Positions 437 through 64,000 of a stretch of DNA of 64,000 nucleotides are shown one piece after another (within the stretch, counting starts at the first letter, position 1; each line of letters starts with the position of its first letter). The stretch is from Patescibacteria group bacterium. Its GTDB lineage: Bacteria; Patescibacteriota; JAQUNI01. Where the stretch lies: NCBI GenBank assembly GCA_028717685.1, contig JAQUNI010000001.1, positions 54,306-118,305 on the forward strand. The letters run 5' to 3'. A model generated the notes under the pieces. That model saw only the letters and a list, made by a program, of their open reading frames with translations, made no database searches and was not told the origin of the DNA. The translations under genes were made by a program, and so were the position numbers.

Positions 437-445
437 AAAGACGAA

Positions 446-829
446 TTACGAAGTACGAATTATAGTTTTAGTAGTTTTAATGAGGCCATTGATCATTTTA
501 CTAAGTTCAATGGTTTGGGTAGCTACAGGGTCAAAATCTTTATTGCTCAAATAGTTTATATCTCTGGCAATTAACAACTGATTTTGAACCTCGGTTAAGG
601 ATCCTAAAGCGCGGCAATAAAACTGCATCTTCTCTTTATAAGAAGGTCTACTAAATCCTTCAGCAATATTAGAAGTGAAAGAAACGGCTGCTCTCCTTAA
701 TTGGCTAGTTAAACCAAAGATTTCTTCTCTGGGAAATTTTTGGGTGACTTTGTAGATCATCAAGACTAATTTGTGTCCTTCTTTCCAAACTCGCAAATCG
801 GTAAAAGATTTAATTTTATTTTGATCCAT
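446..829 (-). CDS. four-helix-bundle protein (23S rRNA intervening-sequence protein / Avd-like fold family)
   Basis: 127 aa. Shares the conserved core with the two pilus-locus paralogs (W-x-K, LT-Q-RRAAVS-SNIAEG). Lies 10 bp from tRNA-Gln. Confidence 0.6.
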   Translation of the reverse strand: MDQNKIKSFTDLRVWKEGHKLVLMIYKVTQKFPREEIFGLTSQLRRAAVSFTSNIAEGFSRPSYKEKMQFYCRALGSLTEVQNQLLIARDINYLSNKDFDPVATQTIELSKMINGLIKTTKTIIRTS

Positions 830-873
830 GAAAATTGTTTATCCGTGATTCGTAATTCGGAATTCGTGATTCG

Positions 874-2397: not shown

Positions 2398-2440
2398 AAA
2401 TTGGGAATGGGGAATTAAGAATTAGGAATCAGGAATAAGA

Positions 2441-3873: not shown

Positions 3874-3922
3874 GACCCCACTAGAGAAACATGCCCCACA
3901 CGAATTTCTAACGGGGTTGACC
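3874..3922. repeat. copy of the dispersed CCCCGTTAGAGAA / TTCTCTAACGGGG palindromic motif family
   Basis: gaccccactagagaaac...tttctaacggggttgacc in the divergent intergenic region. Confidence 0.5.
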
Positions 3923-5889: not shown

Positions 5890-5965
5890 CTATTCTCCCT
5901 CCCCCTCCAACTCCCCCTCGGGCAGGGGGAGTGTAATCAAGCTTATCGCTAATAGACGATACATT
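5890..5965. repeat. GC-rich ~76 bp element, copy 1 of 2 (second copy at 26135..26210)
   Basis: ctattctccctccccctcc-aact-ccccctcgggcagggggagtgtaatcaagct..., about 90 percent identical to the second copy; contains the hairpin ccccc-tcgggca-ggggg. Confidence 0.6.
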
Positions 5966-11610: not shown

Positions 11611-11746
11611 GTTAAAAGTTAAAAGTGCAAAGTGAAAAGTTGAATTTAAAGTTTAAAGTTTCTTTTGTAAAAGCAGCTGCTCCGCAATAATTTTGTACTT
11701 TAAACCGCAATTTTGAACTTTGAATTTTTAACTTTGAACTAATTTT

Positions 11747-12448: not shown

Positions 12449-12452
12449 ATTT

Positions 12453-12492
12453 ACCCCGTTAGATTCGGTTTAGAAATATATTTCTAAACGGG
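12453..12492. repeat. copy of the CCCCGTTAGA palindromic motif family
   Basis: ccccgttagattcg-gtttagaaatatatttctaaac-ggg; inner part is a perfect palindrome. Confidence 0.5.
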
Positions 12493-14037: not shown

Positions 14038-14145
14038 TGAAAAAAATTAAAAATGAAAAGTGAAAAATGTAAAATTAAATTGAAAACAATTTTTTCATTT
14101 TAGATTGTGATTTTTAATTTTTCATTTTATATTTTACGTTTTCTA

Positions 14146-15735
14146 CTACACTTCCTTAAACAGCGCGCTGGAATGGGCTTTTGCGTCTTTGATATTTTCG
14201 GCTTTATGCAGCCGCGGTTTAGGCGTTACTAAAAAGCCCATATATTTTTTTAAGGCAAGTCGCGTCTGGGCGTCAATCGCGGGCACGCTCCCAAAAAAGA
14301 TGGTTACAACGGGCAGTAAAATCCACTGTAAAACCATATAAAAATACTCATAACGCCGATGCCGTTTGGGTCGCGGCGGCACTAAAACTGTGGAAATAAT
14401 CGCGGAAACGAAAATCCCAACCATAGAAAGGGACATTAAAAGCCGCGTCAAATAGGGAAGATTGCGCGCTAACACTGTTTCCCGAAAATCATCGCCTCCC
14501 AGAAATATGGGCATCCAACCGACAACCATTAAAATAATCGCCGTTACCGCCCAAGAATATTTTCCCTCTAACTCCCTGTAAATAATGCGCGTCTTTTTGA
14601 AAAAAGGAATGCCGCGCGTTCTTATGGAACGAAAAATCACATAAGGCAAATTTTCCACGCCCCAACCCCAACGCCTCCGCTGTTTATATTGATTTACAAT
14701 ACTTTCCCAAAAAGATCTGCCCAAAACCGTATCCATAGAGACCGGCATATAAAGAGGAATCACGCGATAGTTCCCGCGATAATGGAAAAAGCATTGATAG
14801 AAAATGCGCGAGTCTTCCGAGACGATATTCGTCTGCCAAAAACCGATTTCCACCGCGGTTTGGAAGCTCATCGCGTGGGAAGAAAAAGTTCCCATTCGCT
14901 CTGGACGCTCCTGCTCCATCATATGCCAAAAGGTAGTGGAAGCGCTAGCCACGCGCGCGAGAGCCGGCGCATCCCAAAGGTTGTTATTAAAGAAAGGAAC
15001 AGGTTGGTAGGAAGCGCGCGTCCGATTTGGTGTCGCAAGATAATGATAGGCAAGACAGGAAAAATATCTGGGGTGGACACAGGTATCGGCGTCAAAAACA
15101 GAAACGATCACATTGTCATAGGGGATACCCTCTCTATCAAGCCATTTTTGGACCTCGCGACCCGCCCAAGTCTCGTTAGAACCCTTGCCGGCAAGTTCGC
15201 CGATAATATCGCCAGGGTGCACCGTAACCATAAATTTATAAAACTTGCTGCCAAATTTTTCTTCTAGGGCACCTGCGTTTTTTAAACCGTTTTCACAATC
15301 CCTCTCTTCCACGCCGAGCACAACAATCATCTTCCCTGTAGGATAATCGGAATCCACTAGGGCTTTAAAAGTGGTTTCTAAAACCTCCAATTCTTCTTTA
15401 TAAGTAGGCAGGATAATCAAATGATAAAGCTCGCTCCATTTTTTATCACCCTGAAAGCTCTGGCATTTTGAGAACCAATCCGTTTTCAGATAGCGCTTCA
15501 TGCGAAAATAAGAAGCAACCTGGTGGATGCAAAGATAAGAAACGCGCAAGAGCCAGTGCAAATCAAAGGCAATAATAAAAATCGCCACGGAGACAGGCTC
15601 AATAAATGAGAATATAATACAAGAAAGAAGCGTGCCCCAAGCCAAAGCCGCAGGAAGAATTTCTAAACTGCGATAAAGAATCCGATCAGAGGGGCTATCT
15701 AAACTTGTGTAGTGAGCGATACCTTTAGGGTCCAT
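14146..15735 (-). CDS. membrane glycosyltransferase family 2, processive type
   Basis: 529 aa with VFDADT (DXD) and QRRRWGWG (Q-x-x-RW) motifs of cellulose/chitin-synthase-like GT2 enzymes, flanked by TM segments. Confidence 0.7.
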   Translation of the reverse strand: MDPKGIAHYTSLDSPSDRILYRSLEILPAALAWGTLLSCIIFSFIEPVSVAIFIIAFDLHWLLRVSYLCIHQVASYFRMKRYLKTDWFSKCQSFQGDKKWSELYHLIILPTYKEELEVLETTFKALVDSDYPTGKMIVVLGVEERDCENGLKNAGALEEKFGSKFYKFMVTVHPGDIIGELAGKGSNETWAGREVQKWLDREGIPYDNVIVSVFDADTCVHPRYFSCLAYHYLATPNRTRASYQPVPFFNNNLWDAPALARVASASTTFWHMMEQERPERMGTFSSHAMSFQTAVEIGFWQTNIVSEDSRIFYQCFFHYRGNYRVIPLYMPVSMDTVLGRSFWESIVNQYKQRRRWGWGVENLPYVIFRSIRTRGIPFFKKTRIIYRELEGKYSWAVTAIILMVVGWMPIFLGGDDFRETVLARNLPYLTRLLMSLSMVGIFVSAIISTVLVPPRPKRHRRYEYFYMVLQWILLPVVTIFFGSVPAIDAQTRLALKKYMGFLVTPKPRLHKAENIKDAKAHSSALFKEV

Positions 15736-15793
15736 AAAAAAAATGTAAAATTAAAAATGAAAAATGTAAAATAACATTTGAGATTTTACATTT

Positions 15794-16207
15794 TTACTGG
15801 TTAATATAAATAAGACTTACTGCTCCGATTAAAACAAAAATTTGCACCGTGAACGCGGTTAAAAGTAAAATATAATTTACAAGACGATCTTTCAAATAAA
15901 ACCAAAAACCGAGGACAAAATTCATTAAGATAATGAAGAGCCCGATTAAAGGAAGGGTAAAAACACGGTGATAAGAACCGATTAAATCAATGCCAAAATA
16001 GATATTATAATGAAGAGGAATGGGATATTCCGAGGGTTTGATAAAATAAGCCAAAAAAATCCAACTTAAAATGTTAAAAAATAAGCTCCCCAAAAAAAAT
16101 CCTAAATTAGTTTTATTGCGCCAAAACTGGGCGCGAAAAAAGCTCCGGACATAAGCCCAGAAATGGCGAAAAATATTCGGTTTTTCTTGATTCTGAACTT
16201 CTTGCAT
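15794..16207 (-). CDS. hypothetical membrane protein
   Basis: 137 aa, four hydrophobic segments, no motif recognised. Confidence 0.4.
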   Translation of the reverse strand: MQEVQNQEKPNIFRHFWAYVRSFFRAQFWRNKTNLGFFLGSLFFNILSWIFLAYFIKPSEYPIPLHYNIYFGIDLIGSYHRVFTLPLIGLFIILMNFVLGFWFYLKDRLVNYILLLTAFTVQIFVLIGAVSLIYINQ

Positions 16208-16414
16208 CTTGCTATAACTATATCTAAAAAAGCCTTAAAAGTAAACCCCGTTAGAGAATTTTGTCGTCCTTCGGTTCTTTGAGCTGAGCTCAAAATTATA
16301 TCCCTACTGTTCATAAATTAGATTGCTAAAATGTGGAATATTTTCTATAATAAATACGAAGTGACATCAGTAAACCCCATTAGGGAACGAAGCTTTCTAG
16401 CAGGGTAAATAAAA

Positions 16415-18019
16415 ATGCACACAAAAAGCAAAATCACAGTAGTTTTATTTTTACTGATTTTGATTCTCGCCGGCGTCTTCCGTTTTTGGCAAATCAGGGA
16501 TCTTCCTGGCGGACTCTACTCGGATGAAGGCGCGAATGGCTTGGATGTTTTGGATATCTTATCCGGCAAGAACCGCGATGTCTTTTATGAGCGCAACTAT
16601 GGTCGGGAGGGATTATTCTTCTACCTGCTCGCTCTCTCGGTTAAAATTTTTGGCATTGGTGTCTGGCAAATGAAAATCGTCTCGGGGATTTTAGGAATCC
16701 TCACGATTATCGGCCTTTATCTCTTGACCAAAACACTTTTTAACCGCACGATCGCCCTTTTAGCCTCTCTATTTGCCGCAGTGTCTATTCCTTATACTTT
16801 CTTGAGCCGCGTGGCTTTCCGCGCCAATATGCTGCCTTTTGTCTCGGTTTTTCTTTTTTATTTCTGCGTGAAGACCCTCAAAGATAAAAAGGATAAATAC
16901 TTTTATTCTTTTTTAGCCGGCATCTTCTTAGCCTTAGGATTTTATACTTATATTTCTTTCCGCATTATCCCCTTCTGCATCATCGCTCTTATTATCCTAT
17001 TTGAAATTATTTGCCGCCGCACTGGCAACCCGAAAGGATTTATTGTCCCTCACCGAAAACAAATTTTCACTGCTCTTATTGCTTTTCTGATTGCCATCGC
17101 GCCTCTTGCTTTCTATTTCTACCAACACCCCTCTTCTTTTTTTGGCCGCGCCAATGATGTTTCTATTTTGAATCCCAATCTAGCGCATGGCCCTTTTTAT
17201 TATCTCCTCCGTAATGTTGGTCTCACCGCAATTATGTTTAATGTCTATGGCGATGCCAATTGGCGCCATAATCTTTCGGAAGCGCCATTTTTTGACCCTG
17301 TGACTGGCGTTCTTTTCTTAGTCGGCTTGATCATCGCGGCGACTATATTTTTAAAAACAGGTTTAAAAGTTTTAAAGCATAAAGACATCGCTTTGCGCGA
17401 AACCTTTGCCGGCTATCTTCTTATTTTTGGCTGGCTTTTCAGCCTCCTTGTTCCGATGATAGCAACAGAAGAAGCAATTCCGCATTTCTTGCGCAGTATT
17501 GGCATTATCCCTGTCGTGTTTATTTTTCCCGCTTTGGGTCTGCGCGCCCTTTTCTTACGCATCCGCTACCGACCAGTGATGCTCGGTTTCCTGCTTCTTC
17601 TTTTAGTTGTCTTTGTGGTTAATTATAATCTCTGGCTATATTTTCAAGTAGCTAAAAACTCTTACGGATATTATACCTCCTATTATGGCGATTTAACTTT
17701 GGTCAGTAACTATATCAATGAAATTAACACGGGTAATACTAAATCCTCTCTCACTACTAGCGCTAATACTTTTCTAGTGCTTGATGATAAGGCTGACCGC
17801 ACTGTCAGCTTCTTAACTGCGCCCGCGAATCCTTATACTTTAATACCAATCAACGCAGAGATAAAAACGACCTATCCCGAAAGCGCGAAAATTATCTTCC
17901 CCTCTTTAAGTTTTAATCGCTTGGCTTCCTTCCAGAATATTTTCCCGGAAGCGAGATTAGTCTACGAAGAATACAATCGGTTTGGGGAAAAGGCGTTTGA
18001 AGTATATACCCTGCAATAA
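16415..18019 (+). CDS. GT-C glycosyltransferase family 39 (ArnT/PMT-like)
   Basis: 534 aa polytopic protein with the first-loop acidic motif (YSDEGANGLD) typical of ArnT/PMT-type GT-C enzymes. Confidence 0.7.
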   Translation: MHTKSKITVVLFLLILILAGVFRFWQIRDLPGGLYSDEGANGLDVLDILSGKNRDVFYERNYGREGLFFYLLALSVKIFGIGVWQMKIVSGILGILTIIGLYLLTKTLFNRTIALLASLFAAVSIPYTFLSRVAFRANMLPFVSVFLFYFCVKTLKDKKDKYFYSFLAGIFLALGFYTYISFRIIPFCIIALIILFEIICRRTGNPKGFIVPHRKQIFTALIAFLIAIAPLAFYFYQHPSSFFGRANDVSILNPNLAHGPFYYLLRNVGLTAIMFNVYGDANWRHNLSEAPFFDPVTGVLFLVGLIIAATIFLKTGLKVLKHKDIALRETFAGYLLIFGWLFSLLVPMIATEEAIPHFLRSIGIIPVVFIFPALGLRALFLRIRYRPVMLGFLLLLLVVFVVNYNLWLYFQVAKNSYGYYTSYYGDLTLVSNYINEINTGNTKSSLTTSANTFLVLDDKADRTVSFLTAPANPYTLIPINAEIKTTYPESAKIIFPSLSFNRLASFQNIFPEARLVYEEYNRFGEKAFEVYTLQ

Positions 18020-18044
18020 TTTTTTTACTATTTATCAAAATTTA

Positions 18045-18181
18045 ATAATTTTCCCTGCGAAAAATTTTCAATTTTCAATTTCTAATTTTTATTAAATTTT
18101 TAATCTTAAAATTTTTAAACATTTAAAATTGATTTATTGAAAATTTAATAAAAATTGAAAATTAGAAATTAAAAATTACTT
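18045..18181. repeat. AT-rich MITE-like element, copy A (terminal inverted repeats aattttcaatttctaattt / aaattagaaattaaaaatt)
   Basis: Left TIR 18070..18088, right TIR about 18160..18178; element ends in aaaattactt directly abutting the ATG of the next gene. Highly similar to copy B. Confidence 0.55.
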
Positions 18182-19933
18182 ATGAAATGGCTCACTAAAT
18201 TTGCTCCTCCTCTTCTGATCACTATAATAGTTTTGGTTTCCTTTTTTTCGGTCCAAAAAGATTCCGCGATTATGGATGAGGTCGCCCATATCCCTGCTGG
18301 CTATTCCTACCTGAAATTTGGAGACTACCGCTTAAATCCCGAGCATCCCCCTTTAGCGAAAATGCTGTCCGCTCTTCCTCTCCTTTTCTTGCACCTCCAA
18401 TTCCCCTTAAACCATCCCACTTGGACAACCGACGTGAATGGTCAATGGGAAGCGGGATATCAGTTTTTATACCACCTTGGCAATGACGCGGATCAAATAC
18501 TCTTTTGGTCGCGCCTGCCGATTATCGCTCTTTTAATCTTGCTGGGGATCTATGTCTGGAAATGGGCAAAAGAGCTCCTGGGGGCAAAATGGGCGCTGGC
18601 GGTTCTGTTTTTGTATGCTTTCTCTCCCACGATTATTGCCCATAGCCACTATGTGACCACTGATTTAGCCGCAACATGTTTTATCTTTATCGCCTTTTAT
18701 TATTTTGTTCATTATTTAAAAAAACCGAGCCTTAAGAATACTCTTTTGGCTGGTCTTGCTCTGGGCTTAGCCGAGGTCGCTAAATTTTCGGCGGTTCTTC
18801 TTTTCCCGTGTTTTGTTCTCCTTGCCCTTATTCCCCTCCTTTTAAACAGGTCTCCCCAAACTTCTTGGCTCAAGCAAACAAAAAACCATATCGGCAAATT
18901 TATCCTCATTTGTTTGATCGCGCTCGGAGTAATCCTTATTGTCTATCAACCCGCGGTCTGGGCTTTCAATTTAGAAAAACAACAAGAATTAATCCGCGGT
19001 TCTATCGGACCGGAAAAAATTGAAAATATTGTGCTCGCTATAAGTAAAATCCCAGGAGCGCAAGGTTTTGCCCAATATATCTTGGGCGTTGTGATGGTCT
19101 TTGCCCGCGTGGGAGGCGGCAACACCAATTACTTCTTGGGTCAGGTTTCTAATCAAGGGTGGTGGTATTATTTCCCAACCTGTTTTTTTCTAAAAGAAAC
19201 AATTTCGGTCTTAATCTTAACAGGATTAGCTTTGCTTTTTGTGATTCGCAAATTTGTCATCAATCTCGTAAAAGACCGTCCGCGCAAATGGCTTCCTTGG
19301 TTTAGGGAATACGCGCTTTGTCATCTGGCGGAAATCTCAATGGTAGTTTTTATCATTGTTTATGGGGTAGTCAGCATGAGAGGCAAACTGAACTTAGGCG
19401 TCCGCCACATTATGGTCCTTTTCCCCTTTATCTATATTTTAATCATTAAAGAATTCAAACGGCGTATAGCAGAAACTGCCTATAAAAAACTTTTCACAGG
19501 AATATTGATTGTTCTCCTTGTTTGGGTTGGCGTGGAAGTCACGATAAATTATCCTTCGTACCTTGCTTATTATAACGAGCTTGGTGGCGGTCCGAAGAAT
19601 GGCTATAAATTGATCACAGATTCCAATCTGGACTGGGGGCAGGATTTAAGACGTATGGCGGAATGGGTGAACGCCAATCCTGAAATCTCAAAAATTAAAG
19701 TAGATTATTTTGGCGGCGGAGTGCCCTCTTATTATCTTGGCGATAAATATCAAGAATGGCATTCGCAAAATGGACCAACAACGGGTTGGATTGCTGTCAG
19801 CGCAAATTATTTTTCTGAAAGTATTTATCGCAAAGATTCCACCTTTGCCACCTCTTACTATTATCTAGAATTAAAAAAGCCCGAAAAAATCTTCGGGCAT
19901 TCCATATTTGTGTATTATATACCGGAGGAATAA
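18182..19933 (+). CDS. GT-C glycosyltransferase family 39 (ArnT/PMT-like), second tandem paralog
   Basis: 583 aa polytopic protein; loop motif MDEVAHIPAGYSY and PEHPPLAKML resemble the ArnT/PMT family. Confidence 0.7.
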   Translation: MKWLTKFAPPLLITIIVLVSFFSVQKDSAIMDEVAHIPAGYSYLKFGDYRLNPEHPPLAKMLSALPLLFLHLQFPLNHPTWTTDVNGQWEAGYQFLYHLGNDADQILFWSRLPIIALLILLGIYVWKWAKELLGAKWALAVLFLYAFSPTIIAHSHYVTTDLAATCFIFIAFYYFVHYLKKPSLKNTLLAGLALGLAEVAKFSAVLLFPCFVLLALIPLLLNRSPQTSWLKQTKNHIGKFILICLIALGVILIVYQPAVWAFNLEKQQELIRGSIGPEKIENIVLAISKIPGAQGFAQYILGVVMVFARVGGGNTNYFLGQVSNQGWWYYFPTCFFLKETISVLILTGLALLFVIRKFVINLVKDRPRKWLPWFREYALCHLAEISMVVFIIVYGVVSMRGKLNLGVRHIMVLFPFIYILIIKEFKRRIAETAYKKLFTGILIVLLVWVGVEVTINYPSYLAYYNELGGGPKNGYKLITDSNLDWGQDLRRMAEWVNANPEISKIKVDYFGGGVPSYYLGDKYQEWHSQNGPTTGWIAVSANYFSESIYRKDSTFATSYYYLELKKPEKIFGHSIFVYYIPEE

Positions 19934-20090
19934 ATTTCTAATTTTCAATTTCTAATTTCTATTAAATTTTTAATTTTAAAATTTTCAAACACCATTAGAA
20001 ATGAAAAATTTCTAGACGGGATAAACCTTTTAAAAATTAATTCATTAGAAATTTAATAAAAATTGAAAATTAGAAATTGAAAATTACTTA
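19934..20090. repeat. AT-rich MITE-like element, copy B
   Basis: Left TIR 19940..19958 and right TIR 20067..20085 are perfect reverse complements; internal sequence near-identical to copy A; right end overlaps the stop codon of the convergent gene. Confidence 0.55.
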
Positions 20091-22469: not shown

Positions 22470-22499
22470 AAGCTACGGTTTTTTTATTCTACTAGACCC

Positions 22500-22640
22500 T
22501 TCTCCGCCTCCCGCTTCCCAAGGGGAGAGGAGTTATTATCCCCTCCTTTCCAAGGAGGGGCTAGGGGAGGTTCTGAGTCAGAACCCCACCCATCCTCCCC
22601 TTGGAAAGGGGAGGTGGGGGGAGAAAGGAAGGGGTCTTTC
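22500..22640. repeat. GC-rich imperfect palindrome / hairpin cluster (probable bidirectional terminator)
   Basis: Hairpins cccctcc-tttccaa-ggagggg and cctcccc-ttggaaa-ggggagg arranged around the perfect palindrome ggttctgagtcagaacc, between the island and the convergent serS. Confidence 0.5.
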
Positions 22641-26134: not shown

Positions 26135-26210
26135 CTATTCTCCCTCCCCCTCCGCCTCCCCCTCGGGCAGGGGGAGTGTAATCAAGCTCCTCGTTAATAG
26201 ATGACATATT
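26135..26210. repeat. GC-rich ~76 bp element, copy 2 of 2
   Basis: ctattctccctccccctcc-gcct-ccccctcgggcagggggagtgtaatcaagct..., near-identical to 5890..5965. Confidence 0.6.
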
Positions 26211-27766: not shown

Positions 27767-27897
27767 AATATTGGTAATCAGTAATTAGTAATTAGTAATT
27801 GGTAATCGGGAGTCCTATAAATTACAAAATTTTTGAAAAGGAGTGAGCAAGAAAATTAGAGACAAATACTTAATTCCTGCTTCCTGATTTGTTCTTC

Positions 27898-31410: not shown

Positions 31411-31518
31411 AAAAAAGCGTAAAGTGAAAAGTGTAAAGCGTAAAGTGTAAAAAATAATAACCCAGTATTTTAAGTTGCACGCTGTTCATTTTATGCTTTA
31501 CGCTTTAAGTTTTAAGCT

Positions 31519-32559: not shown

Positions 32560-32624
32560 AATTTGGAATTAGGAATAGAGAATAATGAATAAGGAATAAG
32601 GAATTCTGAAAGTTACGCAATTCC

Positions 32625-32675
32625 TAAAAAAGGAGTAAGCAGAAATCTAAGGCAAACGCTTAACTCCTGCTTCCT
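32625..32675 (-). terminator. intrinsic terminator after proS
   Basis: On the minus strand: GGAGTTAAGC...GCTTACTCC stem (one bulge) followed by T6. A related sequence occurs after mrdA at 27833..27885. Confidence 0.5.
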
Positions 32676-32699
32676 AATTCCTGATTCCTGATTCCCAAC

Positions 32700-34207: not shown

Positions 34208-34247
34208 GTGAACCCCATTAGAGAATGAAGTTCTCTAACGGGGTAAA
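34208..34247. repeat. copy of the CCCCGTTAGAGAA / TTCTCTAACGGGG palindromic motif family
   Basis: gtgaaccccattagagaa-tgaag-ttctctaacggggtaaa between rseP and proS. Confidence 0.55.
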
Positions 34248-35356: not shown

Positions 35357-35480
35357 GGAAAATTTCTAATTGACCTAATGTCTAATTTCTAAATAATTCC
35401 CAATGTCTAATAACCAATGACTAAAGAAAAATTTTAGACATTAGACATCAGTTATTAGTTAGGTCAATATAAAAATTAGA

Positions 35481-36045: not shown

Positions 36046-36168
36046 GTAAACCCCATTAGAGAACTTCTTTTCTCTAACCCCGTTTGGAAATATGTTTCTA
36101 ACGGGGTCAGCGTCTATATTTTTCCCACCACCGACTTTGTCGGCGGCTTTCTCTAACGGGGTAAAAAT
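36046..36168. repeat. cluster of three copies of the CCCCGTTAGAGAA / TTCTCTAACGGGG motif
   Basis: gtaaaccccattagagaa...ttctctaacccc-gtttggaaatatgtttctaacgggg...tttctctaacggggtaaaaat, plus a ccgac-tttg-tcgg hairpin. Confidence 0.55.
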
Positions 36169-40245: not shown

Positions 40246-40746
40246 AATGAAAACTTAAAACGAAAAGCGTAAAACGCAAAACTACAATGCAAAACTTAAA
40301 ACTTTTTTTATCTTACTTGACGCCTTGATTATAGCATAGCGGAAATTGACGAGTCAAAGGAACGAATCTAGCAGTTGGAATTAAGAATCAAGAATTAAGG
40401 GATTGTTATATTTGTTTCATTGTTGCATTGTTGCATTGTTGAATTCGTAAATATCTTTTCGACCGTCATTGCGAGGCTATTTCCATAGAATCTTAGAAGC
40501 TACATTATCAACCCCCCTACCCCCTTGCCAGGGGGGTCAATTTTTTCCCCTTAGAAAATGAAGGGTGGGGGCTGGAAAAATTTTCTCCCCTGATAAGGGG
40601 AGAAGCAAGAGGGGTTGTAAAATGTAAATCAAAAAAGACAAGATTTTTTTTCTTGCCTTTTCTGTTGTAACCTCTTGATAATCTAATTTTTTAAAAATAG
40701 AACTTTAAGCCCCTCACTTGGTGGCATGGGGGAGAATTCAGAGAGA

Positions 40747-43505: not shown

Positions 43506-43531
43506 AATCTTAAGGGCGGCTTCGCCATTTA

Positions 43532-43559
43532 GGGTGTCGCTCGCAAGCGACACCTTTTT
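43532..43559 (+). terminator. intrinsic terminator after the PEGA protein gene
   Basis: ggtgtcgct-cgca-agcgacacc stem-loop followed by TTTTT. Confidence 0.7.
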
Positions 43560-43661
43560 AACAAATTAACAAAAAATTCAGGTTTAAGTTTACCCCCACA
43601 CCAATACATTGATGGTGGGGGCACACCAAAATCTTTGGTGAAGGATTTGGCGCCGCATACT

Positions 43662-44189: not shown

Positions 44190-44265
44190 AAATTAATTGT
44201 TCTTTTGAAAACTTAGAAGATAAAAATTTTTTAAGAAATAATAAACCCTTACCACAAACTAAAGC

Positions 44266-44697: not shown

Positions 44698-44825
44698 AGA
44701 GATAATATCTAATTTCTAATATTAAATACAATAGCTAATAATTAAAGCTTTTGTAACTTATAGCCTATAACTTGTGACTCAAGCCTTGTATTACAAGTTT
44801 CAAGTTATAAATTATAAAAATTATT

Positions 44826-45176: not shown

Positions 45177-45303
45177 AATAAAATCTTTTTACCCCACACC
45201 TTTGTAAGAAGAGTACCCCGCGAGCCTAGGCTAACGGGTATGAATAGATATCAGTGAAATCCTTGCCTTCCGAGGTTTAATACTTCACGAGAAAGTGCGG
45301 GAT

Positions 45304-46281: not shown

Positions 46282-46367
46282 ATTATTTGGTTCTAAAAGA
46301 CACTTCTTGAAGACTTAGGGTAAATTTTTATCTCTAAGCCTTGAAGCGCTTTTTATCTAAAATGTTA

Positions 46368-46994: not shown

Positions 46995-47102
46995 AAATTC
47001 GGAATTAGGAATAGGGAATTATGAATCATGAATCAGAAATTAGGAAGCGAGGAAAAAAGCTGTTCATCTTTATTCCTGATTCCTGATTCCCACTTCCTTT
47101 AG

Positions 47103-47561: not shown

Positions 47562-47640
47562 AATGTTGGAATTAGGAATTGTGAATCAGGAATTAGGAAA
47601 GAAGAAAAAAGGCTATTCATCTTTATTCCTTATTCAGATT

Positions 47641-48030: not shown

Positions 48031-48132
48031 AAAATTGGAATTGTGAATTATGAATTATGAATTATGAAATTTGACAGCACATTCTTAATTTTAGATTTTC
48101 GCGATTCGTAATTCGTAATTCTAGATTCGGTG

Positions 48133-59061: not shown

Positions 59062-59067
59062 TAGGAT

Positions 59068-59084
59068 TAGTTGGTAGTTTGTAG
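59068..59084. repeat. left inverted repeat flanking four-helix-bundle gene 1
   Basis: tagttggtagtttgtag is the perfect reverse complement of 59468..59484. Confidence 0.7.
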
Positions 59085-59103
59085 TGAGTAGTTAGTAGTA
59101 AAT

Positions 59104-59463
59104 ATGAAAATTGAATCGTACGAAAATTTAATTGTGTGGCAAAAGTCAATGGATCTGGTGATTGCTGTTTATGCATTGACAGAAAAATTTCCAAAAGAAG
59201 AACTATACGGTTTAACTTCACAAATGCGCCGCGCAACTGTTTCAGTTCCTTCCAATATTGCGGAAGGTAGTAGGCGTGGTTCTCGAAAAAATTTTAGAAA
59301 TTTTTTACTCAATGCGTATGGTTCCAGTGCAGAGCTTGGGACTCAGATCAAAATCGCGAAACGGCTTTCATACGGAAAAACCAAAAATTATGAGCAAGCG
59401 GATGCACTGCTTGATGAAGTAATGCGCATGTTAGACAAATTGACGTATGGGCTCAAAGAATAA
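59104..59463 (+). CDS. four-helix-bundle protein (23S rRNA IVS-protein / Avd-like fold family), copy 1
   Basis: 119 aa (MKIESYENLIVWQKSMDLV...LTSQMRRATVSVPSNIAEG); about 92 percent identical to the copy at 61765..62124. Confidence 0.7.
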   Translation: MKIESYENLIVWQKSMDLVIAVYALTEKFPKEELYGLTSQMRRATVSVPSNIAEGSRRGSRKNFRNFLLNAYGSSAELGTQIKIAKRLSYGKTKNYEQADALLDEVMRMLDKLTYGLKE

Positions 59464-60886
59464 AAGTCTACAAACTACCAACTACAAACTACAAACTATC
59501 TTCCTAGGCAAAGAACGGGACTATTTTATTGAGAATTTAAGCATGCTGGTCGCCGCTGGCATGCCGATTTTGGGCGTTCTCGACTCCATTGCCAAAGAAC
59601 TGCGCTCGCGCCGCATGAAAAAAATTCTTGCTCTTATTCGGGAATATATTGAATCTGGCTCGCCAATTTGGAAAGCGCTTCAAACAACTAACCTGTTTGC
59701 CGACCACACTATCTCGCTTATCCGCCTTGGCGAAGAATCGGGAAAGCTTACGGAGAACTTAAAAGTGGTCGCGAATGAACAAGAAAAAAATCGGGTGTTC
59801 CACTCCAAGCTTCGTTCCGCCATAATGTATCCTGTATTCGTACTCTCACTCACGGTCATTATCGGTGTGGGCATTGCGTGGTTTATTTTGCCCAAGCTGG
59901 CGCTGGTGTTTGCCCAGCTTAAAATAACCTTGCCCCTTATCACAAAAATTTTGATCGGATCGGGAACATTTCTTGGCGAATATGGCCAATACGTCGTGCC
60001 CGCGGCAGTTATAGCAATATCAGTTATTTTTTTCTTTATTTTCTCATTTCCAAAAACAAAATTTATCGGGCAATTTATTTTATTTTCTTTGCCCGGCGTT
60101 AAACAACTTATTAAGGAAGTGGAGCTGGCGCGGCTCGGTTATCTTTTAGGCACGCTTCTTGACGCTGGACTGCCGGTAACCCAAGCGCTCAACTCGCTCG
60201 CAAGCGCTACCGAGATTGCGCCATACAAAAAACTCTACAAACACCTGCGCGACTCGGTAGAAGACGGCAATCCGTTCCGGAAAAGCTTTATTTCCTTTAA
60301 GCGCACTAATCATCTTATTCCCGAACCTATTCAGCAACTCATCGTCGCTGGTGAACAGTCAGGCACTCTTTCAGCAACTCTTCTTAAAATCGGAGAGACT
60401 TATGAAGCTAAAGCGGACACGACGACAAAAAATTTGACCGTGATTCTGGAGCCGATATTACTCGTCATCGTGTGGCTCGGCGTTGTAGCCGTGGCGTTAG
60501 CAGTGATTTTGCCAATCTACAGCCTTATCGGCGGATTTAACGCCAACCAGCCCGCAGCGGCACAGCCTCCTCCTGCCGAAGAACAGGTAATCAGTCCGCC
60601 GCCAAGTGTGGAAACAACAGCTCCAGATACAGAAACCGTGGAAGTAATACCCCCTCCGGATACAGAAATCATAGAGAAAAAACCAACAACGCTCCGCGTT
60701 CTTCCCACTAGCGTAGGGTATCTTAACGTGCGCGAGAAACCATCATTAACAAGTAAAATCGTCACGCGCGTTAAGCCGGGTGAAACATTTGAATACACTG
60801 AAAAAAACGAGAGCTGGTATAAAATTATTTTGCCGGATGGCAATTCCGGATGGGTGTTTGAAAAATATGTTGAAGAAAATGAATAA
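59447..60886 (+). CDS. pilC: type IV pilus platform protein PilC (GspF family) with C-terminal SH3b-like domain
   Basis: 479 aa: two GspF repeats and three TM segments, then a Pro/Thr/Glu-rich linker and an SH3b-like domain (YLNVREKPSLTSKIVTRVKPGETFEY...WYKI...GWV). ATG overlaps the 4HB stop. Confidence 0.85.
   Translation: MGSKNKSLQTTNYKLQTIFLGKERDYFIENLSMLVAAGMPILGVLDSIAKELRSRRMKKILALIREYIESGSPIWKALQTTNLFADHTISLIRLGEESGKLTENLKVVANEQEKNRVFHSKLRSAIMYPVFVLSLTVIIGVGIAWFILPKLALVFAQLKITLPLITKILIGSGTFLGEYGQYVVPAAVIAISVIFFFIFSFPKTKFIGQFILFSLPGVKQLIKEVELARLGYLLGTLLDAGLPVTQALNSLASATEIAPYKKLYKHLRDSVEDGNPFRKSFISFKRTNHLIPEPIQQLIVAGEQSGTLSATLLKIGETYEAKADTTTKNLTVILEPILLVIVWLGVVAVALAVILPIYSLIGGFNANQPAAAQPPPAEEQVISPPPSVETTAPDTETVEVIPPPDTEIIEKKPTTLRVLPTSVGYLNVREKPSLTSKIVTRVKPGETFEYTEKNESWYKIILPDGNSGWVFEKYVEENE
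59468..59484. repeat. right inverted repeat flanking four-helix-bundle gene 1 (also encodes the N-terminus of PilC)
   Basis: ctacaaactaccaacta; read in the pilC frame it encodes LQTTNYKLQT. Confidence 0.7.
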
Positions 60887-61038
60887 ACAAAACTAACAAA
60901 TGACACATAACATCTGACACATGACATTTGACACATATGAAACAAAAAAAATTATAGGAAAATAAAAGGGCATCGTCAGATGTTAGGTATCAGATGTTCC
61001 AAAAGGGTTTACCCAGCACCACTTTTTAGATTATAAAC

Positions 61039-61731
61039 ATGTATTACGTCTATACCTTAATTAGTAAGTTAAAAAATAAGACAGAAATATATATTGGATC
61101 AACAAATGATCTGAGAAGAAGACTAAGAGATCATAATAATGGTAAAGAAAGATCTACAAAACGTTATAGGACGTGGAATCTGATTTACTACGAAGCATAT
61201 ATAACAGAGAGTCTAGCAAGATTAAGAGAAAAACGATTGAAACATCACGGAAATGCGATGAAAGAATTAAAAAAAAGAATCGGATTATCCGAATGGAAAA
61301 GTGGTGCTGGGTTTACCTTGCTGGAAGTTCTTCTCTCTATCGCGGCGATCGCGATTATCGCCGTAATTTCTATTCCCATTTATCAGTCGTTTCAGGTGCG
61401 AAACGATCTTGATATCGCGACCATGGAAATTGCCCAAACTTTGCGGCGCGCGCAAGTACTTTCCCAAGCGGTTGATGGCGACACAAGCTGGGGCGTTTCT
61501 CTCGCAAGCGGAAATATCACGCTTTTTAAGGGCGTAAGTTACGCCACCCGCGATACCAATTTTGATGAAGTGTTTGATGTATCAACAAATATCACTCCAT
61601 CGGGACCTTCCGAAATCGTGTTTGTAAAATTTACAGGCTTACCACAGACCACGGGGACAATAATGCTATCCTCCAATATGAATGAAACGAGAAATATAGT
61701 AATTAACCAGAAGGGAATGGTTAATTATTAG
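61039..61731 (+). CDS. GIY-YIG nuclease domain fused in frame to a type IV prepilin
   Basis: 230 aa. Residues 1-90 are a complete GIY-YIG domain (YYVYTL...IYIGSTNDLRRRLRDHN...YYE...E). Residues 74-91 look like a prepilin leader (MKELKKRIGLSEWKSGAG) followed by the cleavage/methylation motif G/FTLLEV and a hydrophobic helix. Confidence 0.7.
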   Translation: MYYVYTLISKLKNKTEIYIGSTNDLRRRLRDHNNGKERSTKRYRTWNLIYYEAYITESLARLREKRLKHHGNAMKELKKRIGLSEWKSGAGFTLLEVLLSIAAIAIIAVISIPIYQSFQVRNDLDIATMEIAQTLRRAQVLSQAVDGDTSWGVSLASGNITLFKGVSYATRDTNFDEVFDVSTNITPSGPSEIVFVKFTGLPQTTGTIMLSSNMNETRNIVINQKGMVNY

Positions 61732-61736
61732 TTGGT

Positions 61737-61752
61737 AGTTTGTAGTGGGTAG
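61737..61752. repeat. left inverted repeat flanking four-helix-bundle gene 2
   Basis: agtttgtagtgggtag is the perfect reverse complement of 62129..62144. Confidence 0.7.
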
Positions 61753-61764
61753 TTGGTAGTAAAT

Positions 61765-62124
61765 ATGAAAATTGAATCATACGAAAATTTAATTGTGTGG
61801 CAAAAGTCAATGGATTTAGTGATTGCTGTTTATGCATTGACAGGAAAATTTCCAAAAGCAGAACTATACGGTTTAACTTCACAAATGCGCCGCGCGGCTG
61901 TTTCAATTCCTTCCAATATCGCGGAGGGGAGCAGGCGCGGTTCTCGGAAGGATTTTAGAAATTTTTTACTCAATGCGTATGGTTCTGGTGCAGAGCTTGA
62001 AACTCAAGTTAAAATTGCGAAACGACTTTCATACGGAAAAACCAAAGATTATGAGCAGGCGGACGCGCTGCTCGATGAAGTAATGCGCATGTTAAACAAA
62101 TTGACGTATGGGCTCAAAGAATAA
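61765..62124 (+). CDS. four-helix-bundle protein (23S rRNA IVS-protein / Avd-like fold family), copy 2
   Basis: 119 aa from the ATG at 61765 (the ORF track starts at an upstream TTG). Ten substitutions relative to copy 1. Confidence 0.7.
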   Translation: MKIESYENLIVWQKSMDLVIAVYALTGKFPKAELYGLTSQMRRAAVSIPSNIAEGSRRGSRKDFRNFLLNAYGSGAELETQVKIAKRLSYGKTKDYEQADALLDEVMRMLNKLTYGLKE

Positions 62125-62746
62125 AAATCTACCCACTACAAACTACAAACTACCCACTCAACAAGGCTTCAGCCTTGTTGAAGTTATTCTCGCCAGCGCG
62201 GTGTTTGTTTTGTTCGTTACCGCGCTTGTCGGAGCGTACCTCTATGGGCAGGAGTCAACCGCGCTTGCCGGCAATCGCGCGCGCGCGACGATTCTTGCCG
62301 AAGAAGGGCTTGAGGCAGTGCGCAATATCCGCGATGCCGGATTTTCTAATCTCACCGACGGCACCTACGGATTGGCTGTTGTCGGCAACCAATGGGCGTT
62401 ATTCGGAACATCAGACACAACGGGTATTTTTACCCGCCAAATTACAATTTCCGCTGTAGATTCAGAACGAAAAAGCGTGACTGCGAATGTCGCTTGGCAA
62501 CAAAATGCCCAGCGCCCGGGAGCAGTTGCCCTGACGACCTATCTTACTAACTGGAAAAAGGCGACTCCTGTCAATTCCTGCGATATTTACTGCCAGTTGT
62601 TGGGAACCTATACCACTGGTACCTGTCGGGAAAATTCCCAACAATGTACTAAGTATGACGAGATTTATGAGGCGGGCGGTGATCCTATTTGTGTGACTAG
62701 TTTTCCTGGCGACGCCAGCCATGATACTTGTTGCTGCAAACCATAA
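62108..62746 (+). CDS. type IV pilin-like protein with Cys-rich C-terminus
   Basis: 212 aa: leader MGSKNKNLPTTNYKLPTQQG, cleavage motif G/FSLVEV (Glu at +5), hydrophobic helix; eight Cys in the last 55 residues. ATG overlaps the 4HB copy 2 stop. Confidence 0.7.
   Translation: MGSKNKNLPTTNYKLPTQQGFSLVEVILASAVFVLFVTALVGAYLYGQESTALAGNRARATILAEEGLEAVRNIRDAGFSNLTDGTYGLAVVGNQWALFGTSDTTGIFTRQITISAVDSERKSVTANVAWQQNAQRPGAVALTTYLTNWKKATPVNSCDIYCQLLGTYTTGTCRENSQQCTKYDEIYEAGGDPICVTSFPGDASHDTCCCKP
62129..62144. repeat. right inverted repeat flanking four-helix-bundle gene 2 (encodes part of a prepilin leader)
   Basis: ctacccactacaaact; in the pilin frame it encodes LPTTNYKL. Confidence 0.7.
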
Positions 62747-62751: not shown

Positions 62752-62823
62752 GGATTAGTTTGTAGTGAGTAGTTGGTAGGTTGTAGTTTTCTACTCACTA
62801 CTCACTACAAACTACAAACTAAC
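62752..62823. repeat. inverted-repeat hairpin of the leader-coding motif with no gene in the loop
   Basis: agtttgtagtgagtagttggtag...ctactcactactcactacaaactacaaact: the same arms that flank the 4HB genes, here adjacent, just upstream of the pilin ATG at 62824. Confidence 0.6.
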
Positions 62824-63348
62824 ATGCTACCAACTACAAACTACCAACTACAAACCCAGCGTGGCTTCACGCTAATTGAACTGCTTCTCTATGTTGCCGT
62901 TGCGTCGGCGATACTTTTGGCGATTTCGGTTTTTCTTTCAATCCTCCTTCAGTCGCGCATCAAAAATCAAACTATCGCTGAAGTGGAACAGCAGGGGCTT
63001 CAAGTTATGCAACTCGTTACGCAAACCGCGCGCAACGCCGAGGCAATCACCTCGCCAGCGCAGGGCGCAAGCGCTTCATCTTTGACGCTTGACGTTATTT
63101 CTGCTGCCAGTGACCCCACTATTTTTGATCTCGCAAGCGGCGCGATTCGCGTCAAAGAAGGGGCTGGTTCAGCTACCGCTCTTACTAATTCTCGCGTTAC
63201 CGCTTCCGCTCTCACATTCCAAAATCTCTCTCGCACCGACACTCCGGGCACGGTTCGCGTCCAATTCACCCTCGCACATACAAATCCAGAAGGCAGAAAT
63301 GAATACTCATTTACTAAAACATTTATCGGCTCTGCGAGCCTGCGCTAG
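62824..63348 (+). CDS. type IV pilin-like protein
   Basis: Start taken at ATG 62824 (ORF track: 62773). Leader MLPTTNYQLQTQRG, cleavage motif G/FTLIEL (Glu at +5), hydrophobic helix LLYVAVASAILLAISVF. Confidence 0.7.
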   Translation: MLPTTNYQLQTQRGFTLIELLLYVAVASAILLAISVFLSILLQSRIKNQTIAEVEQQGLQVMQLVTQTARNAEAITSPAQGASASSLTLDVISAASDPTIFDLASGAIRVKEGAGSATALTNSRVTASALTFQNLSRTDTPGTVRVQFTLAHTNPEGRNEYSFTKTFIGSASLR

Positions 63349-63480
63349 TCATAATGCGGCAAATGCCGCAACGACTGACACTTGATACCTAGCACCTGAC
63401 AACTGACCACTAACATCTAACATTTTGTTAGGTGTCAGATGCCAAATGTCAGGTGTTAGGTGCTAGGTGTCAAGTGTTAA

Positions 63481-63927
63481 TTGTATAGAACCAGGTTATT
63501 CACACTCATGATTATTTTAAAATATAAAAAGTGTTATAATAAACAGGAGGATGGGTTCATTACCCTAATAAGTGTCTTGGTGGTTGGAGCGGTTGGAATA
63601 GCCCTCACAATTTCCGTGATTTTGCTCGGGCTTGGGTCGTCGCGAACAAGTTTTACGAATGAGCAGTCAAACCAAGCGAAAGCCCTCACTAACGCCTGTG
63701 CCGAAGAAGCTCTTCAGCAAATTCGTGATTCTGTGAATTTTGAAGGTACCGGTAGCCTTACTTTAGGTCTGGGCAGCTGCACCTATACCGTGACCAAACT
63801 TGTTAGCCAGAACCGAACCGTCACCGCCAGCGGGACAGTGGGAACAATCATAAGAAAAGCAAGTATTGCTCTTGATACAATCAGACCGAGCATCAACATC
63901 ACTTCCTGGCAAGAGGTGGCTGATTAG
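63481..63927 (+). CDS. minor pilin/pseudopilin-like protein
   Basis: 148 aa: G/FITLIS followed by a hydrophobic helix (VLVVGAVGIALTISVILLG); Ser instead of Glu at +5. True start is probably an internal Met. Confidence 0.5.
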   Translation: MYRTRLFTLMIILKYKKCYNKQEDGFITLISVLVVGAVGIALTISVILLGLGSSRTSFTNEQSNQAKALTNACAEEALQQIRDSVNFEGTGSLTLGLGSCTYTVTKLVSQNRTVTASGTVGTIIRKASIALDTIRPSINITSWQEVAD

Positions 63928-64000
63928 TTAGTAGTTTGTAGTGAGTAGTGAATAAAAAACTACCAACTAACACGCTACCAACTACAAGCTAAATAAACAT
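63928..64000. repeat. further copy of the pilin-leader inverted-repeat motif at the window edge
   Basis: agttagtagtttgtagtgagtagtg...ctaccaactaacacgctaccaactacaagc; probably precedes another pilin-like gene beyond the window. Confidence 0.45.

Follow-up and report, generated by a model that had tools for sequence, protein, structure and literature searches.

Tandem repeats with a 7-nt unit are already known from bacterial intergenic spacers. In Xanthomonas and Nostoc, the GGGAATC and GGGGA(C/T)T repeats are 89–93% intergenic, lie mostly between co-directional and rarely between divergent genes, and are located near the end of the upstream gene, typically as approximately four units, with 70–75 convergent inverted pairs per genome that are potential stem-loops (Rehm et al. 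2015, PMC4692102). The TAACTGA direct repeats of Beggiatoaceae, Cyanobacteria, and Bacteroidetes reside a few nucleotides upstream of start codons lacking a ribosome-binding site (RBS), occur in the context of ribosomal-protein operons with a patchy phylogeny, and include one inverted pair in 170 sets (MacGregor 2015, PMC4679880). A different kind of element, the intervening sequence (IVS) found in Coxiella 23S rRNA, carries a PF05635 ('S23p') open reading frame (ORF) in the loop of a 28-bp terminal inverted-repeat stem; 23S IVSs have no promoter of their own, are transcribed within the host RNA, are regarded as selfish, and also exist in ORF-less forms, and their sites are helix 9, 25, or 45 of 23S rRNA, with excision by RNase III having been demonstrated (Warrier et al. 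2016, PMC4990558). The window analysed here, a 64,000-nt stretch of contig JAQUNI010000001.1 from a genome of Candidatus Doudnabacteria (Patescibacteria/Candidate Phyla Radiation, CPR), adds to the known spacer heptamers a CPR example with many AT-rich words. Its palindromic spacers consist of a short tandem-repeat run followed by its reverse complement, which together span the gap between the stop codon of the upstream gene and the start codon of the downstream one, and they are probably small self-complementary insertion elements, paralogous to one another, that represent cargo-less forms of IVS-like PF05635 cassettes.

A preliminary description of the window named eight spacers in which a repeat run is followed by the same run in inverted orientation. 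All eight are present, each being exactly a stop-to-start gap, and about 15 further instances were found in the window, three of which enclose a gene (Table 1). A typical element begins a few nucleotides past the upstream stop and ends 1–12 nt short of the downstream ATG, and at most loci no more than about 8 nt separate the stem base from the stop, and no more than about 12 nt separate it from the start. As the elements span stop to start, the entire spacer can be regarded as one hairpin whose base would bring the two codons together, and each of the named spacers can indeed fold into the long weak stem that had been proposed for it. The arms were located by an ungapped best-stem search, and the stems were compared with 300 shuffles per locus in which each half was shuffled separately, preserving the A-rich and T-rich halves. 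The observed score was never reached at seven of the eight named loci and was reached by 3 of 300 shuffles at 47562–47640; the arms pair much better than shuffles of matched composition. RNAfold z-scores against dinucleotide shuffles range from −2.35 to −5.16 across the eight loci.

The repeat unit, for which words of 6–8 nt were initially given, is exactly 7 nt by lag scans and by Tandem Repeats Finder (TRF), which reports a period of 7 or 14 almost everywhere. In a strict tandem scan, lag 7 accounts for 13 tracts and lag 8 for one, lags 3–6 and 9–12 give none, and no strict lag-7 tract appears in 200 shuffles of the spacers; a looser scan yields 29 tracts at lag 7 versus 0–3 at lags 4–11. 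Nor does each locus possess a word of its own: at least eight word families are present in the 64 kb (xGAATyz, TAGTTNG, AAAGTKN, AAAAATG, TTTTCAA, TAATYAG, CTAATGT, and TGACACN), and they recur, with xGAATyz at nine or more places, TAGTTNG/CTACAAA at four, and AAAAATG and TTTTCAA at two each. The recurring plan is seen across the window, where the density of lag-7 tracts is 0.45 per kb, compared with 0.019 per kb in 79 loci (1.2 Mb) of other bacteria, a difference of approximately 24-fold. Thirteen of the 23 tracts in the comparison loci come from one Falkowbacteria locus (CPR; L014) and one of Pedobacter zeae (L080); no PF05635 gene is found within these heptamer-rich, RecR-selected pieces of 10–20 kb. 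The palindromes are not assembly artefacts, since window positions 43103–50524 and 46704–48084 in the ribosomal-protein operon are matched at 100% identity by SRR22315509 and SRR22315508, two independent Logan assemblies; the same identity makes the assemblies uninformative on strain-level variation in copy number.

Like the Xanthomonas and Nostoc repeats, the window elements are intergenic tandem units of 7 nt with inverted pairs and a co-directional trend, arrays being present in 19 of 43 co-directional spacers (paired in 11), one of five convergent spacers, and one of seven divergent spacers (a weak, T-rich array). This distribution resembles that of Xanthomonas, the co-directional bias in 64 kb being a trend only (Fisher p = 0.22). 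The GGGAATC word itself occurs in the window, e.g., in 'gggaatcaggaatcaggaat' at 47080–47098 on the minus strand. The Xanthomonas and Nostoc genomes, however, each have one dominant G-rich word and have been studied as G-quadruplex formers, whereas the families of the window are mostly AT-rich and unable to form G-quadruplexes. With respect to heptanucleotide tandem repeats in general, the unit of 7 and the intergenic co-directional position are shared, but not the restriction to one or a few words per genome. The TAACTGA repeats are similarly found near start codons without an RBS in ribosomal-protein operons, but they consist of a single word in direct orientation, whereas the window arrays are mostly paired and their words are many. 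Roughly added up, the listed elements account for about 2.2 kb of the approximately 8.5 kb of non-coding DNA in the window (by an ORF-based gene map). CPR lineages are noted for reduced genomes, and in this one the heptamer elements are a major unexplained component of the non-coding DNA.

Three of the elements hold in their loop a PF05635 gene (23S rRNA intervening-sequence protein, an Avd-like four-helix bundle), between arms of approximately 25–40 nt. Cassette 1 lies between the dnaX stop codon and tRNA-Gln, its CGAATYA arm (873–839) facing a TRATTCG arm (465–441). In alignment A1, cassettes 2 and 3 share about 92% identity over the length bounded by the outer edges of their arms; the mean column identity is 89% with the unrelated flanks included, and homology stops at the arm edges. 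The ATG that opens the pilC ORF (59447) resides inside cassette 2, and the prepilin ORF 62108–62746 likewise opens inside cassette 3. Like the 23S IVS, these cassettes consist of a PF05635 ORF within stem-forming inverted repeats, and the other palindromes correspond to the stem only; unlike the IVS, they are located at the dnaX/tRNA-Gln, pilB/pilC, and pilin junctions and not in 23S rRNA. They are thus not 23S IVSs in the strict sense, which is defined by the 23S location. Their stems are built of heptamer repeats. Nor does the encoded protein qualify as the accessory protein Avd of diversity-generating retroelements (DGRs), as NCBIfam DivGenRetAVD scores 32 bits (cut-off 80) and Pfam bAvd falls below its cut-off, and no reverse transcriptase gene is present in the 64 kb.

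The palindromes and cassettes are connected by their words as well as by their plan. Two empty palindromes, 62756–62855 and 63921–63985, use the words of cassettes 2 and 3, and the empty L36–S13 element (48031–48132) shares its word family with the arms of cassette 1 (441–873). At 62756–62855, the palindrome is followed by an extra CTACCAA/CTACAAA run encoding a prepilin leader (ATG at 62824), and translation of the CTACAAA/CTACCAA arrays yields the PilC N-terminus and prepilin leaders (59447–59500, 62108–62158, and 62824–62855), an arrangement that is also found in a Parcubacteria relative (L167, 2853–2900). As 7 equals 1 modulo 3, an array that becomes one unit longer or shorter would change the reading frame, and phase-variable pilin expression through the leader arrays is conceivable.

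The association of PF05635 genes with inverted heptamer arrays extends well beyond the window, and cassettes of this type are widespread in bacterial phyla. A metagenome scan with the window PF05635 protein recovered 80 loci of 33–67% G+C, in which 67% of the upstream and 64% of the downstream 120-nt flanks contain at least 16 of 21 lag-7 matches; of 1018 control windows taken from these loci, 2.5% do so, and at other lags the figure is 0%. In the 36 loci with both arms strong, 6.2 of 7 positions agree when the upstream consensus heptamer is set against the downstream one in reverse complement, versus 3.3 of 7 in direct comparison. The arms have a median of about five units; in 33 of 44 distinct loci, G exceeds C in the 5' arm and C exceeds G in the 3' arm. 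In approximately 26 of 46 loci, the stop of an upstream ORF on the same strand is no more than about 15 nt away from the 5' arm, and several loci have empty palindromes nearby with the cassette's own word. Word similarity is weakly correlated with protein similarity (Mantel r = 0.28, p ≤ 0.0005), the word match being 7 of 7 at protein identities of 90% or more, 4.4 of 7 at 75–90%, and 3.7 of 7 in the background; this weak tracking indicates that words turn over fast while the arms stay complementary. The idea that the 5' arm closes all reading frames while the 3' arm stays open was rejected, as the two arms are alike in 44 cassettes (1.82 and 1.77 frames with stops). No conserved 23S rRNA motif was found in the 80 loci, though by a weak test.

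PF05635 is a very large family, with 21,714 cluster representatives (clusters at 50% identity) at E ≤ 1e-3, and the nearest relatives of the window protein, at 65–82% identity, are spread over CPR lineages. Many representatives have a length of 140–630 aa, the four-helix bundle making up one end, which suggests that reading through the heptamer arms, and thereby fusing the cassette ORF with its neighbours, is a frequent error of gene callers; the arms give rise to fused or mis-started ORF calls, and downstream start codons lie inside cassettes. Matches on plasmids derive almost entirely from heterocystous cyanobacteria. On pNPUN01 of Nostoc punctiforme, the PF05635 gene is preceded by eight units of AGGAGTC and followed by four of CCTGACT, and arrays by PF05635 genes are also present in Nostoc PCC 7120 and Anabaena sp. 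90. The heterocystous cyanobacteria are at the same time the taxa of the STRR heptamer repeats, reportedly described by Mazel in 1990. Arrays of period 8 flank PF05635 genes in Picosynechococcus (L186) and Gemmatirosa (L187), with lag-8 scores of 17–21 of 21, and in Gemmatirosa the upstream and downstream arrays appear direct and not inverted. Two cassettes reside within CRISPR-Cas operons, in Anabaena sp. 90 pANA02 (L184) and on a Picosynechococcus PCC 7003 plasmid (L186), one insertion point lying between cas6 and cas4, the other between cas10/cmr2 and cmr3; they are another case of insertion between co-directional operon genes. The closest solved structure to the protein of window cassette 2 is 2GSC, Xanthomonas campestris XCC0516, and a GGGAATC array lies 6 nt after bccP, overlapping the start of XCC0516 (Rehm et al. 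2015, supplementary table, PMC4692102). PF05635 or cargo genes are not mentioned in Rehm et al. 2015 (PMC4692102).

Several palindromes of the window are related through more than their repeat words. Those at 46995–47102 and 47562–47640 align through the non-repetitive loop too, and those at 18040–18181 and 19934–20083 flank one gene and have near-identical arms, the loop of the latter holding a nested 38-nt small hairpin repeat in the alignment of the two. The spacers 32560–32699 and 27767–27897 align at 79% column identity (alignment A3) and share the loop and right arm, but in the left array of 27767–27897 every unit reads GTAATNA where the other has GGAATNA, and its folding excess is lost (z = 0). 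On this alignment, 27767–27897 is a direct view of a new word homogenised through one array, with the other arm uncompensated.

Comparison with relatives points to rapid turnover. In the close relative L001, a metagenome-assembled genome (MAG; JBAZQX010000004.1) whose RecR is 98% identical to that of the window and whose genes have about 92% nucleotide identity, ordinary spacers are 90–95% identical to those of the window, while heptamer spacers either have other sequence in their place or carry different words in both arms. The 11611–11746 element is replaced by unrelated sequence, the start-proximal part of which bears the words of window 35357–35480, and a 25-nt start-proximal arm segment of 35357–35480 is found again upstream of recR. 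At the site of 14038–14145 the palindrome is kept with both arms in AAAACTC/AAACCTC words, and the short palindrome 15736–15793 is preserved at 65 of 70 positions. Four further relatives were compared over the ribosomal-protein operon, with S11 identities to the window of 89% (L161), 81% (L164), 72% (L162), and 69% (L163). The S13–S11 spacer, a GGAATYA palindrome in the window, has the same word with another loop and copy number in L161 and L164, no element in L162 (29 nt), and no heptamer element in L163. The S11–S4 spacer, a GGAATCA palindrome in the window, is occupied by an AAAGCGT palindrome in L161, the word of the window mreB–mreC palindrome (31411–31518), by a TTTTTAA palindrome in L162, by an unrelated 77 nt in L163, and by 8 nt ('aaaaaatt') in L164. 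The L36–S13 spacer holds a GAATTAT/GAATTAC palindrome in the window, an AAAGTTN palindrome in L161, a TTTTCAA palindrome in L162, and none in L163 (30 nt). The L17–L13 spacer measures 128 nt in the window and 9, 44, and 4 nt in L161, L162, and L163, and the L13–S9 spacer measures 76, 5, 102 (with heptamers), and 9 nt in the same order; the L164 contig does not extend over the L36–S13, L17–L13, and L13–S9 spacers. As some relatives have only 4–12 nt at these junctions, the ground state is abutting genes without a Shine-Dalgarno (SD) sequence, and the palindromes are, judging from these alignments, insertions that are gained, lost, and swapped at given junctions. The paralogous loops, the sharp-bordered duplication of an arm-gene-arm unit, and the junction swaps in relatives contradict the initial view of a genome-wide architecture rather than a set of independent elements.

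The same observations bear on the alternative that the palindromes are a mutational by-product, in which slippage makes the arrays and intrastrand template switching inverts them spacer by spacer, with neither mobility nor function. Heptamers are the commonest long simple sequence repeats in prokaryotes, for which slippage has been proposed (Mrazek 2007, as summarised in PMC4679880), and the re-wording of all units in one array of 27767–27897, the variation in copy number between relatives, and the lack of a strand-specific G·U signal (below) would be expected. Slippage alone, however, does not lead one to expect the non-repetitive loop sequence common to copies at different junctions, the duplicated cassette with sharp borders, the 25-nt arm segment that recurs at another gene in L001, the tight cross-phylum tie to one gene family, or the far lower tract density in other bacteria, and we regard this origin as quite improbable.

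The reading that we favour, in which the spacers are paralogous insertion elements and cargo-less relatives of the PF05635 cassettes, akin to the STRR and GGGAATC repeats, runs as follows. An element consists of about three to six heptamer units, a loop, and the inverted array, is set exactly between a stop codon and the next co-directional start, and comes, goes, or is swapped at a junction within a few percent of genomic divergence, its word changing through homogenisation within an array. It would be co-transcribed with the operon, as suggested by its location within operons and by the lack of promoter and terminator signals. At the RNA level, the arms would fold back so that the insert loops out and the stop and start codons are rejoined, which would account for the toleration of insertions in tightly coupled operons, and the long stem would be a likely RNase III substrate, by analogy with 23S rRNA IVSs. 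Slippage in the 7-nt register, together with exchange between arms or selection for pairing, may keep the arrays tandem and complementary even as their word drifts.

A number of points weigh against this reading. Most window palindromes contain no gene and have words not found beside a window PF05635 gene, and the link between palindromes and cassettes is drawn, from sequence, on shared architecture, two word families, and co-occurrence. The borders of the duplicated cassette (alignment A1) show no target-site duplication, and no transposase, reverse transcriptase, or RNase III (rnc) gene is present among the genes of the 64-kb window, so that mobility is deduced only from paralogy and polymorphism. 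The L36–S13, S13–S11, and S11–S4 junctions hold palindromes of different words in most relatives, and this repeated occupancy could also mean selection for a palindrome there. The sequence gives no sign that the pairing takes place at the RNA level: the sense transcripts of the palindromes fold no better than the antisense, and mismatches show no G·U bias on the sense strand, either in the window palindromes (8 versus 14) or in the cassettes (46 versus 30, p = 0.085). The 80 metagenomic loci lack taxonomic assignment and are partly drawn from the same organism; exact duplicates were removed only for the 44-locus analysis.

Other mobile-element classes were also compared. Like REP and REPIN sequences, the window elements are extragenic palindromes that follow stop codons between co-directional or convergent genes, are present in many copies, and evolve within the genome; unlike them, they have a 7-nt periodicity, many words, and optional PF05635 cargo. 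REP elements are co-transcribed short extragenic palindromes. Each family of REP/BIME and REPIN sequences has one conserved 20–40 nt consensus and a cognate RAYT transposase (Bertels & Rainey 2011, PMC3116915). In the window, several small paralogous families are found with no single consensus, and no RAYT or other transposase is present in the 64 kb. A miniature inverted-repeat transposable element (MITE) was rejected, as the duplicated cassette shows no target duplication, no transposase parent was seen, and the arms are whole tandem arrays.

The position of the elements immediately before start codons raises the possibility of translation control, in which the start-proximal array would be read by a protein that binds single-stranded RNA (S1, a cold-shock protein, CsrA, or the PF05635 protein) and drives or tunes initiation in the absence of an SD sequence, while the other arm masks it. 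No GGAGG precedes the starts that follow these elements, unlike other spacers of the window, which do have one, and at most loci the arrays end within 1–12 nt of the ATG, in the manner of the TAACTGA repeats in ribosomal-protein operons (MacGregor 2015, PMC4679880). In 13 of 17 palindromes the start-proximal arm is the T-rich one; across relatives, the start-proximal arm of the S13–S11 spacer is better preserved than the other arm and the loop; and solo arrays occupy leaders at 2398–2440 and, behind a promoter, at 40246–40302. Relatives without an element, however, also lack an SD sequence and have abutting genes, as at S11–S4 in L164, so initiation can do without the array. The presence of at least eight unrelated words in one genome and their fast turnover sit badly with sequence-specific recognition, and the start-proximal arm of the TAGTTNG cassettes is A/C-rich and translated. 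Translation control as the explanation of the elements is, on balance, unlikely.

The preliminary description had instead linked the palindromes to transcription, as a habit joining terminator and promoter. As a rival explanation, each element, selected as genome-wide punctuation of transcription units, would serve as terminator through its hairpin and as promoter through its AT-rich downstream arm; this agrees with a hairpin following the stop, with T-rich sequence after the stem at 31411, 14038, and 15736, and with the occupation of the same junctions in several relatives. A consensus scan for terminators and promoters over 30–49 kb of the window, however, called no palindrome there an intrinsic terminator and found promoter-like matches inside palindromes only at 48088–48061 and 31515–31488, each weak (9/12), whereas clear sigma-70-like promoters lie outside the palindromes (e.g., 40357–40328) and canonical GC-stem terminators occur elsewhere in the window. 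With the arm ending 1–12 nt before the ATG at most loci, there is no room for a −10 element and leader unless the mRNAs are leaderless, and neither presence/absence among close relatives inside the ribosomal-protein operon nor the single weak, T-rich tract in seven divergent spacers is in keeping with punctuation. The proposed terminator–promoter link is thus not supported, and as a general explanation it is highly improbable.

A role at the DNA level, with hairpins or cruciforms at which proteins of replication, recombination, or the nucleoid bind or pause, would be consistent with pairing that shows no preference for the transcribed strand and with AT-rich, easily melted arms. Loops of 30–70 nt, however, disfavour cruciform extrusion from duplex DNA, and the positions follow stop and start codons and gene orientation, not replication features, so we see very little chance that such a role explains the elements.

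Beyond the window, we tentatively propose, as a possibility that we would not yet call probable, that PF05635 genes with inverted heptamer arrays form cross-phylum, operon-parasitic cassettes, that the STRR, GGGAATC, TAACTGA, and CPR spacer repeats are their derivatives and the rRNA IVSs a special case, and that the PF05635 protein recognises or maintains the arrays. The cassettes would insert right after stop codons, owe their expression to read-through, and fold out of the host's RNA, and cargo-less palindromes and solo arrays would be their non-autonomous derivatives. Avd, a relative of the PF05635 protein, is a pentamer; with arms of about five units, this leads us to propose the PF05635 protein as the array-recognising factor. 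If true, the link would offer one explanation for heptamers being the commonest long simple repeats in bacteria, and would explain the cyanobacterial STRR repeats, the Xanthomonas GGGAATC pairs, and the origin of rRNA IVSs and 'S23p' ORFs; the role of this very large protein family, whose function is unknown, also becomes testable through it. No link between heptamer repeats and PF05635 cassettes was found in the searchable literature, a search of incomplete coverage that is not proof of novelty.

Table 1. Heptamer elements and PF05635 cassettes of the window (window coordinates; the shuffle column gives the half-shuffles that reach the observed stem score).
Feature	Coordinates	Strand	Repeat words	Arms	Shuffles	Remarks
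Cassette 1, 3' arm	441..465	-	ATTCGTA CTTCGTA ATTCGT			Includes the gene's stop codon; ends 4 nt before tRNA-Gln (364-436)
Cassette 1, PF05635 gene	446..829	-				Pfam E = 3.4e-37; found by tblastn; 42% identical to the other two copies
Cassette 1, 5' arm	839..873	-	CGAATCA CGAATTC CGAATTA CGAATCA			Directly after dnaX stop codon
Solo array	2398..2440	-	GGAATNA family			Fills 43-nt spacer upstream of dnaX start; T-rich strand in mRNA
Palindrome, ybaB-recR spacer	11611..11746	+	AAAGTTA/AAAGTGN	11611-11642, 11708-11739	0/300	Fold -36.2 kcal/mol vs -21.3 for shuffles, z = -5.16
Palindrome between two glycosyltransferase genes	14038..14145	-	AAAAATG/AAAAGTG	14043-14086, 14092-14135	0/300	Loop 5 nt
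Short palindrome	15736..15793	-	AAAAATG family	15741-15759, 15775-15793		
Palindrome upstream of PMT_2 gene 18182-19933	18020..18181	+	TTTTCAA/TTTCTAA	18063-18104, 18136-18177		Stem score 27; shuffle maximum 19
Paralogue of 18020..18181, convergent spacer	19934..20083	.		19940-19974, 20044-20078		z = -5.31
Decayed copy	27767..27897	-	Left array GTAATYA			Loop and right arm homologous to 32560-32699; z = 0.0
Palindrome, mreB-mreC spacer	31411..31518	-	AAAGTGT/AAAGCGT	31434-31452, 31489-31507	0/300	
Palindrome, proS-mreB spacer	32560..32699	-	GGAATNA / TTCCTGA	32580-32603, 32671-32694	0/300	
Palindrome between frr and M50 peptidase genes	35357..35480	-	CTAATGT / TAGACAT	35375-35393, 35433-35451	0/300	z = -4.78
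Solo array, leader of mreB2 (39235-40245)	40246..40302	-				Downstream of best promoter-like site 40357-40328
Weaker palindromic insert, L17-L13 spacer	44698..44825	-		44749-44775, 44793-44819	2/300	
Palindrome, S11-S4 spacer	46995..47102	-	GGAATCA	47007-47033, 47072-47098	0/300	
Palindrome, S13-S11 spacer	47562..47640	-	GGAATTA	47582-47593, 47625-47636	3/300	
Palindrome filling L36-S13 spacer	48031..48132	-	GAATTAT against GAATTAC	48045-48062, 48104-48121	0/300	
Cassette 2, 5' arm	59062..59103	+	TAGTTGG TAGTTTG TAGTGAG TAGTTAG			Starts at pilB TAG stop
Cassette 2, PF05635 gene	59104..59463	+				Pfam E = 8.1e-39; TIGR02436 'four helix bundle protein'
Cassette 2, 3' arm	59465..59500	+	CTACAAA CTACCAA CTACAAA CTACAAA			Translated as N-terminus of pilC ORF
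Palindrome downstream of pilC	60887..61038	+	TGACACA / GATGTTA	60895-60918, 60975-60998	0/300	
Cassette 3, 5' arm	61725..61764	+				Upstream gene's TAG stop within arm
Cassette 3, PF05635 gene	61765..62124	+				Pfam E = 4.2e-40
Cassette 3, 3' arm	62125..62158	+				Codes leader peptide of prepilin ORF 62108-62746
Empty palindrome	62756..62855	+	Words of cassettes 2 and 3	62756-62779, 62791-62814		Loop 11 nt
Best-paired palindrome of window	63349..63480	+	CTGACAC / GGTGTCA	63378-63407, 63448-63477		Fold -74.5 kcal/mol, z = -10.85
Second empty palindrome, window edge	63921..63985	+	TAGTTNG/CTACCAA, same as cassettes 2 and 3			

The window has a G+C content of about 42%, and its gene content is ordinary housekeeping, including dnaX, dnaB, ybaB, recR, several tRNA synthetases, and two mreB copies, together with a ribosomal-protein operon (IF1–L36–S13–S11–S4–rpoA–L17–L13–S9) and a type IV pilus cluster. 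At the gathering threshold, Rfam detects one tRNA and nothing else across the window. The L36 gene (48133–48246, minus strand, 37 aa) lies inside a 334-nt "spacer" of an ORF list made with an 80-aa cut-off; with this gene in place, palindrome 48031–48132 makes up the entire L36–S13 spacer. In the pilus cluster, the ORF 61039–61731 (plus strand) encodes a GIY-YIG nuclease domain (residues 1–75) fused to a prepilin cleavage motif (KSGAG/FTLLEVLL, at about residue 90) and a pilin body. Judging from the encoded sequence, prepilin peptidase would then release the GIY-YIG domain as the 'leader', and the ORF has the look of a pilin gene whose 5' end received, in frame, a selfish nuclease gene.

Other repeats are also present in the window. 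A second family comprises small hairpins built on AACCCCGTTAGA…TCTAACGGGGT, which reside mostly in spacers and resemble REP-type sequences, with 19 matches at two or fewer mismatches versus 4.3 expected; copies include 3907–3918, 12452–12463, 16244–16255, 34211–34245, 36049–36163, 48726–48767, and 57256–57267, and one is nested in the loop of palindrome 19934–20083. In L001, an insertion of about 1.7 kb with ORFs (L001 positions 14554–16500) occupies a divergent spacer that measures 207 nt in the window (16208–16414), and its start directly follows a AACCCCGTTAGA hairpin half that both share. A GC-rich repeat (…CTATTCTCCCTCCCCCTCC…CCCCCTCGGGCAGGGGGAGTGTAATCAAGC) occurs twice, at 5913–5942 and 26158–26187, with 30 nt identical, and other C/G-rich hairpin modules are located in the spacers 22470–22639 and 40520–40620; in L001, GC-rich modules are insertions at places where the window has none.

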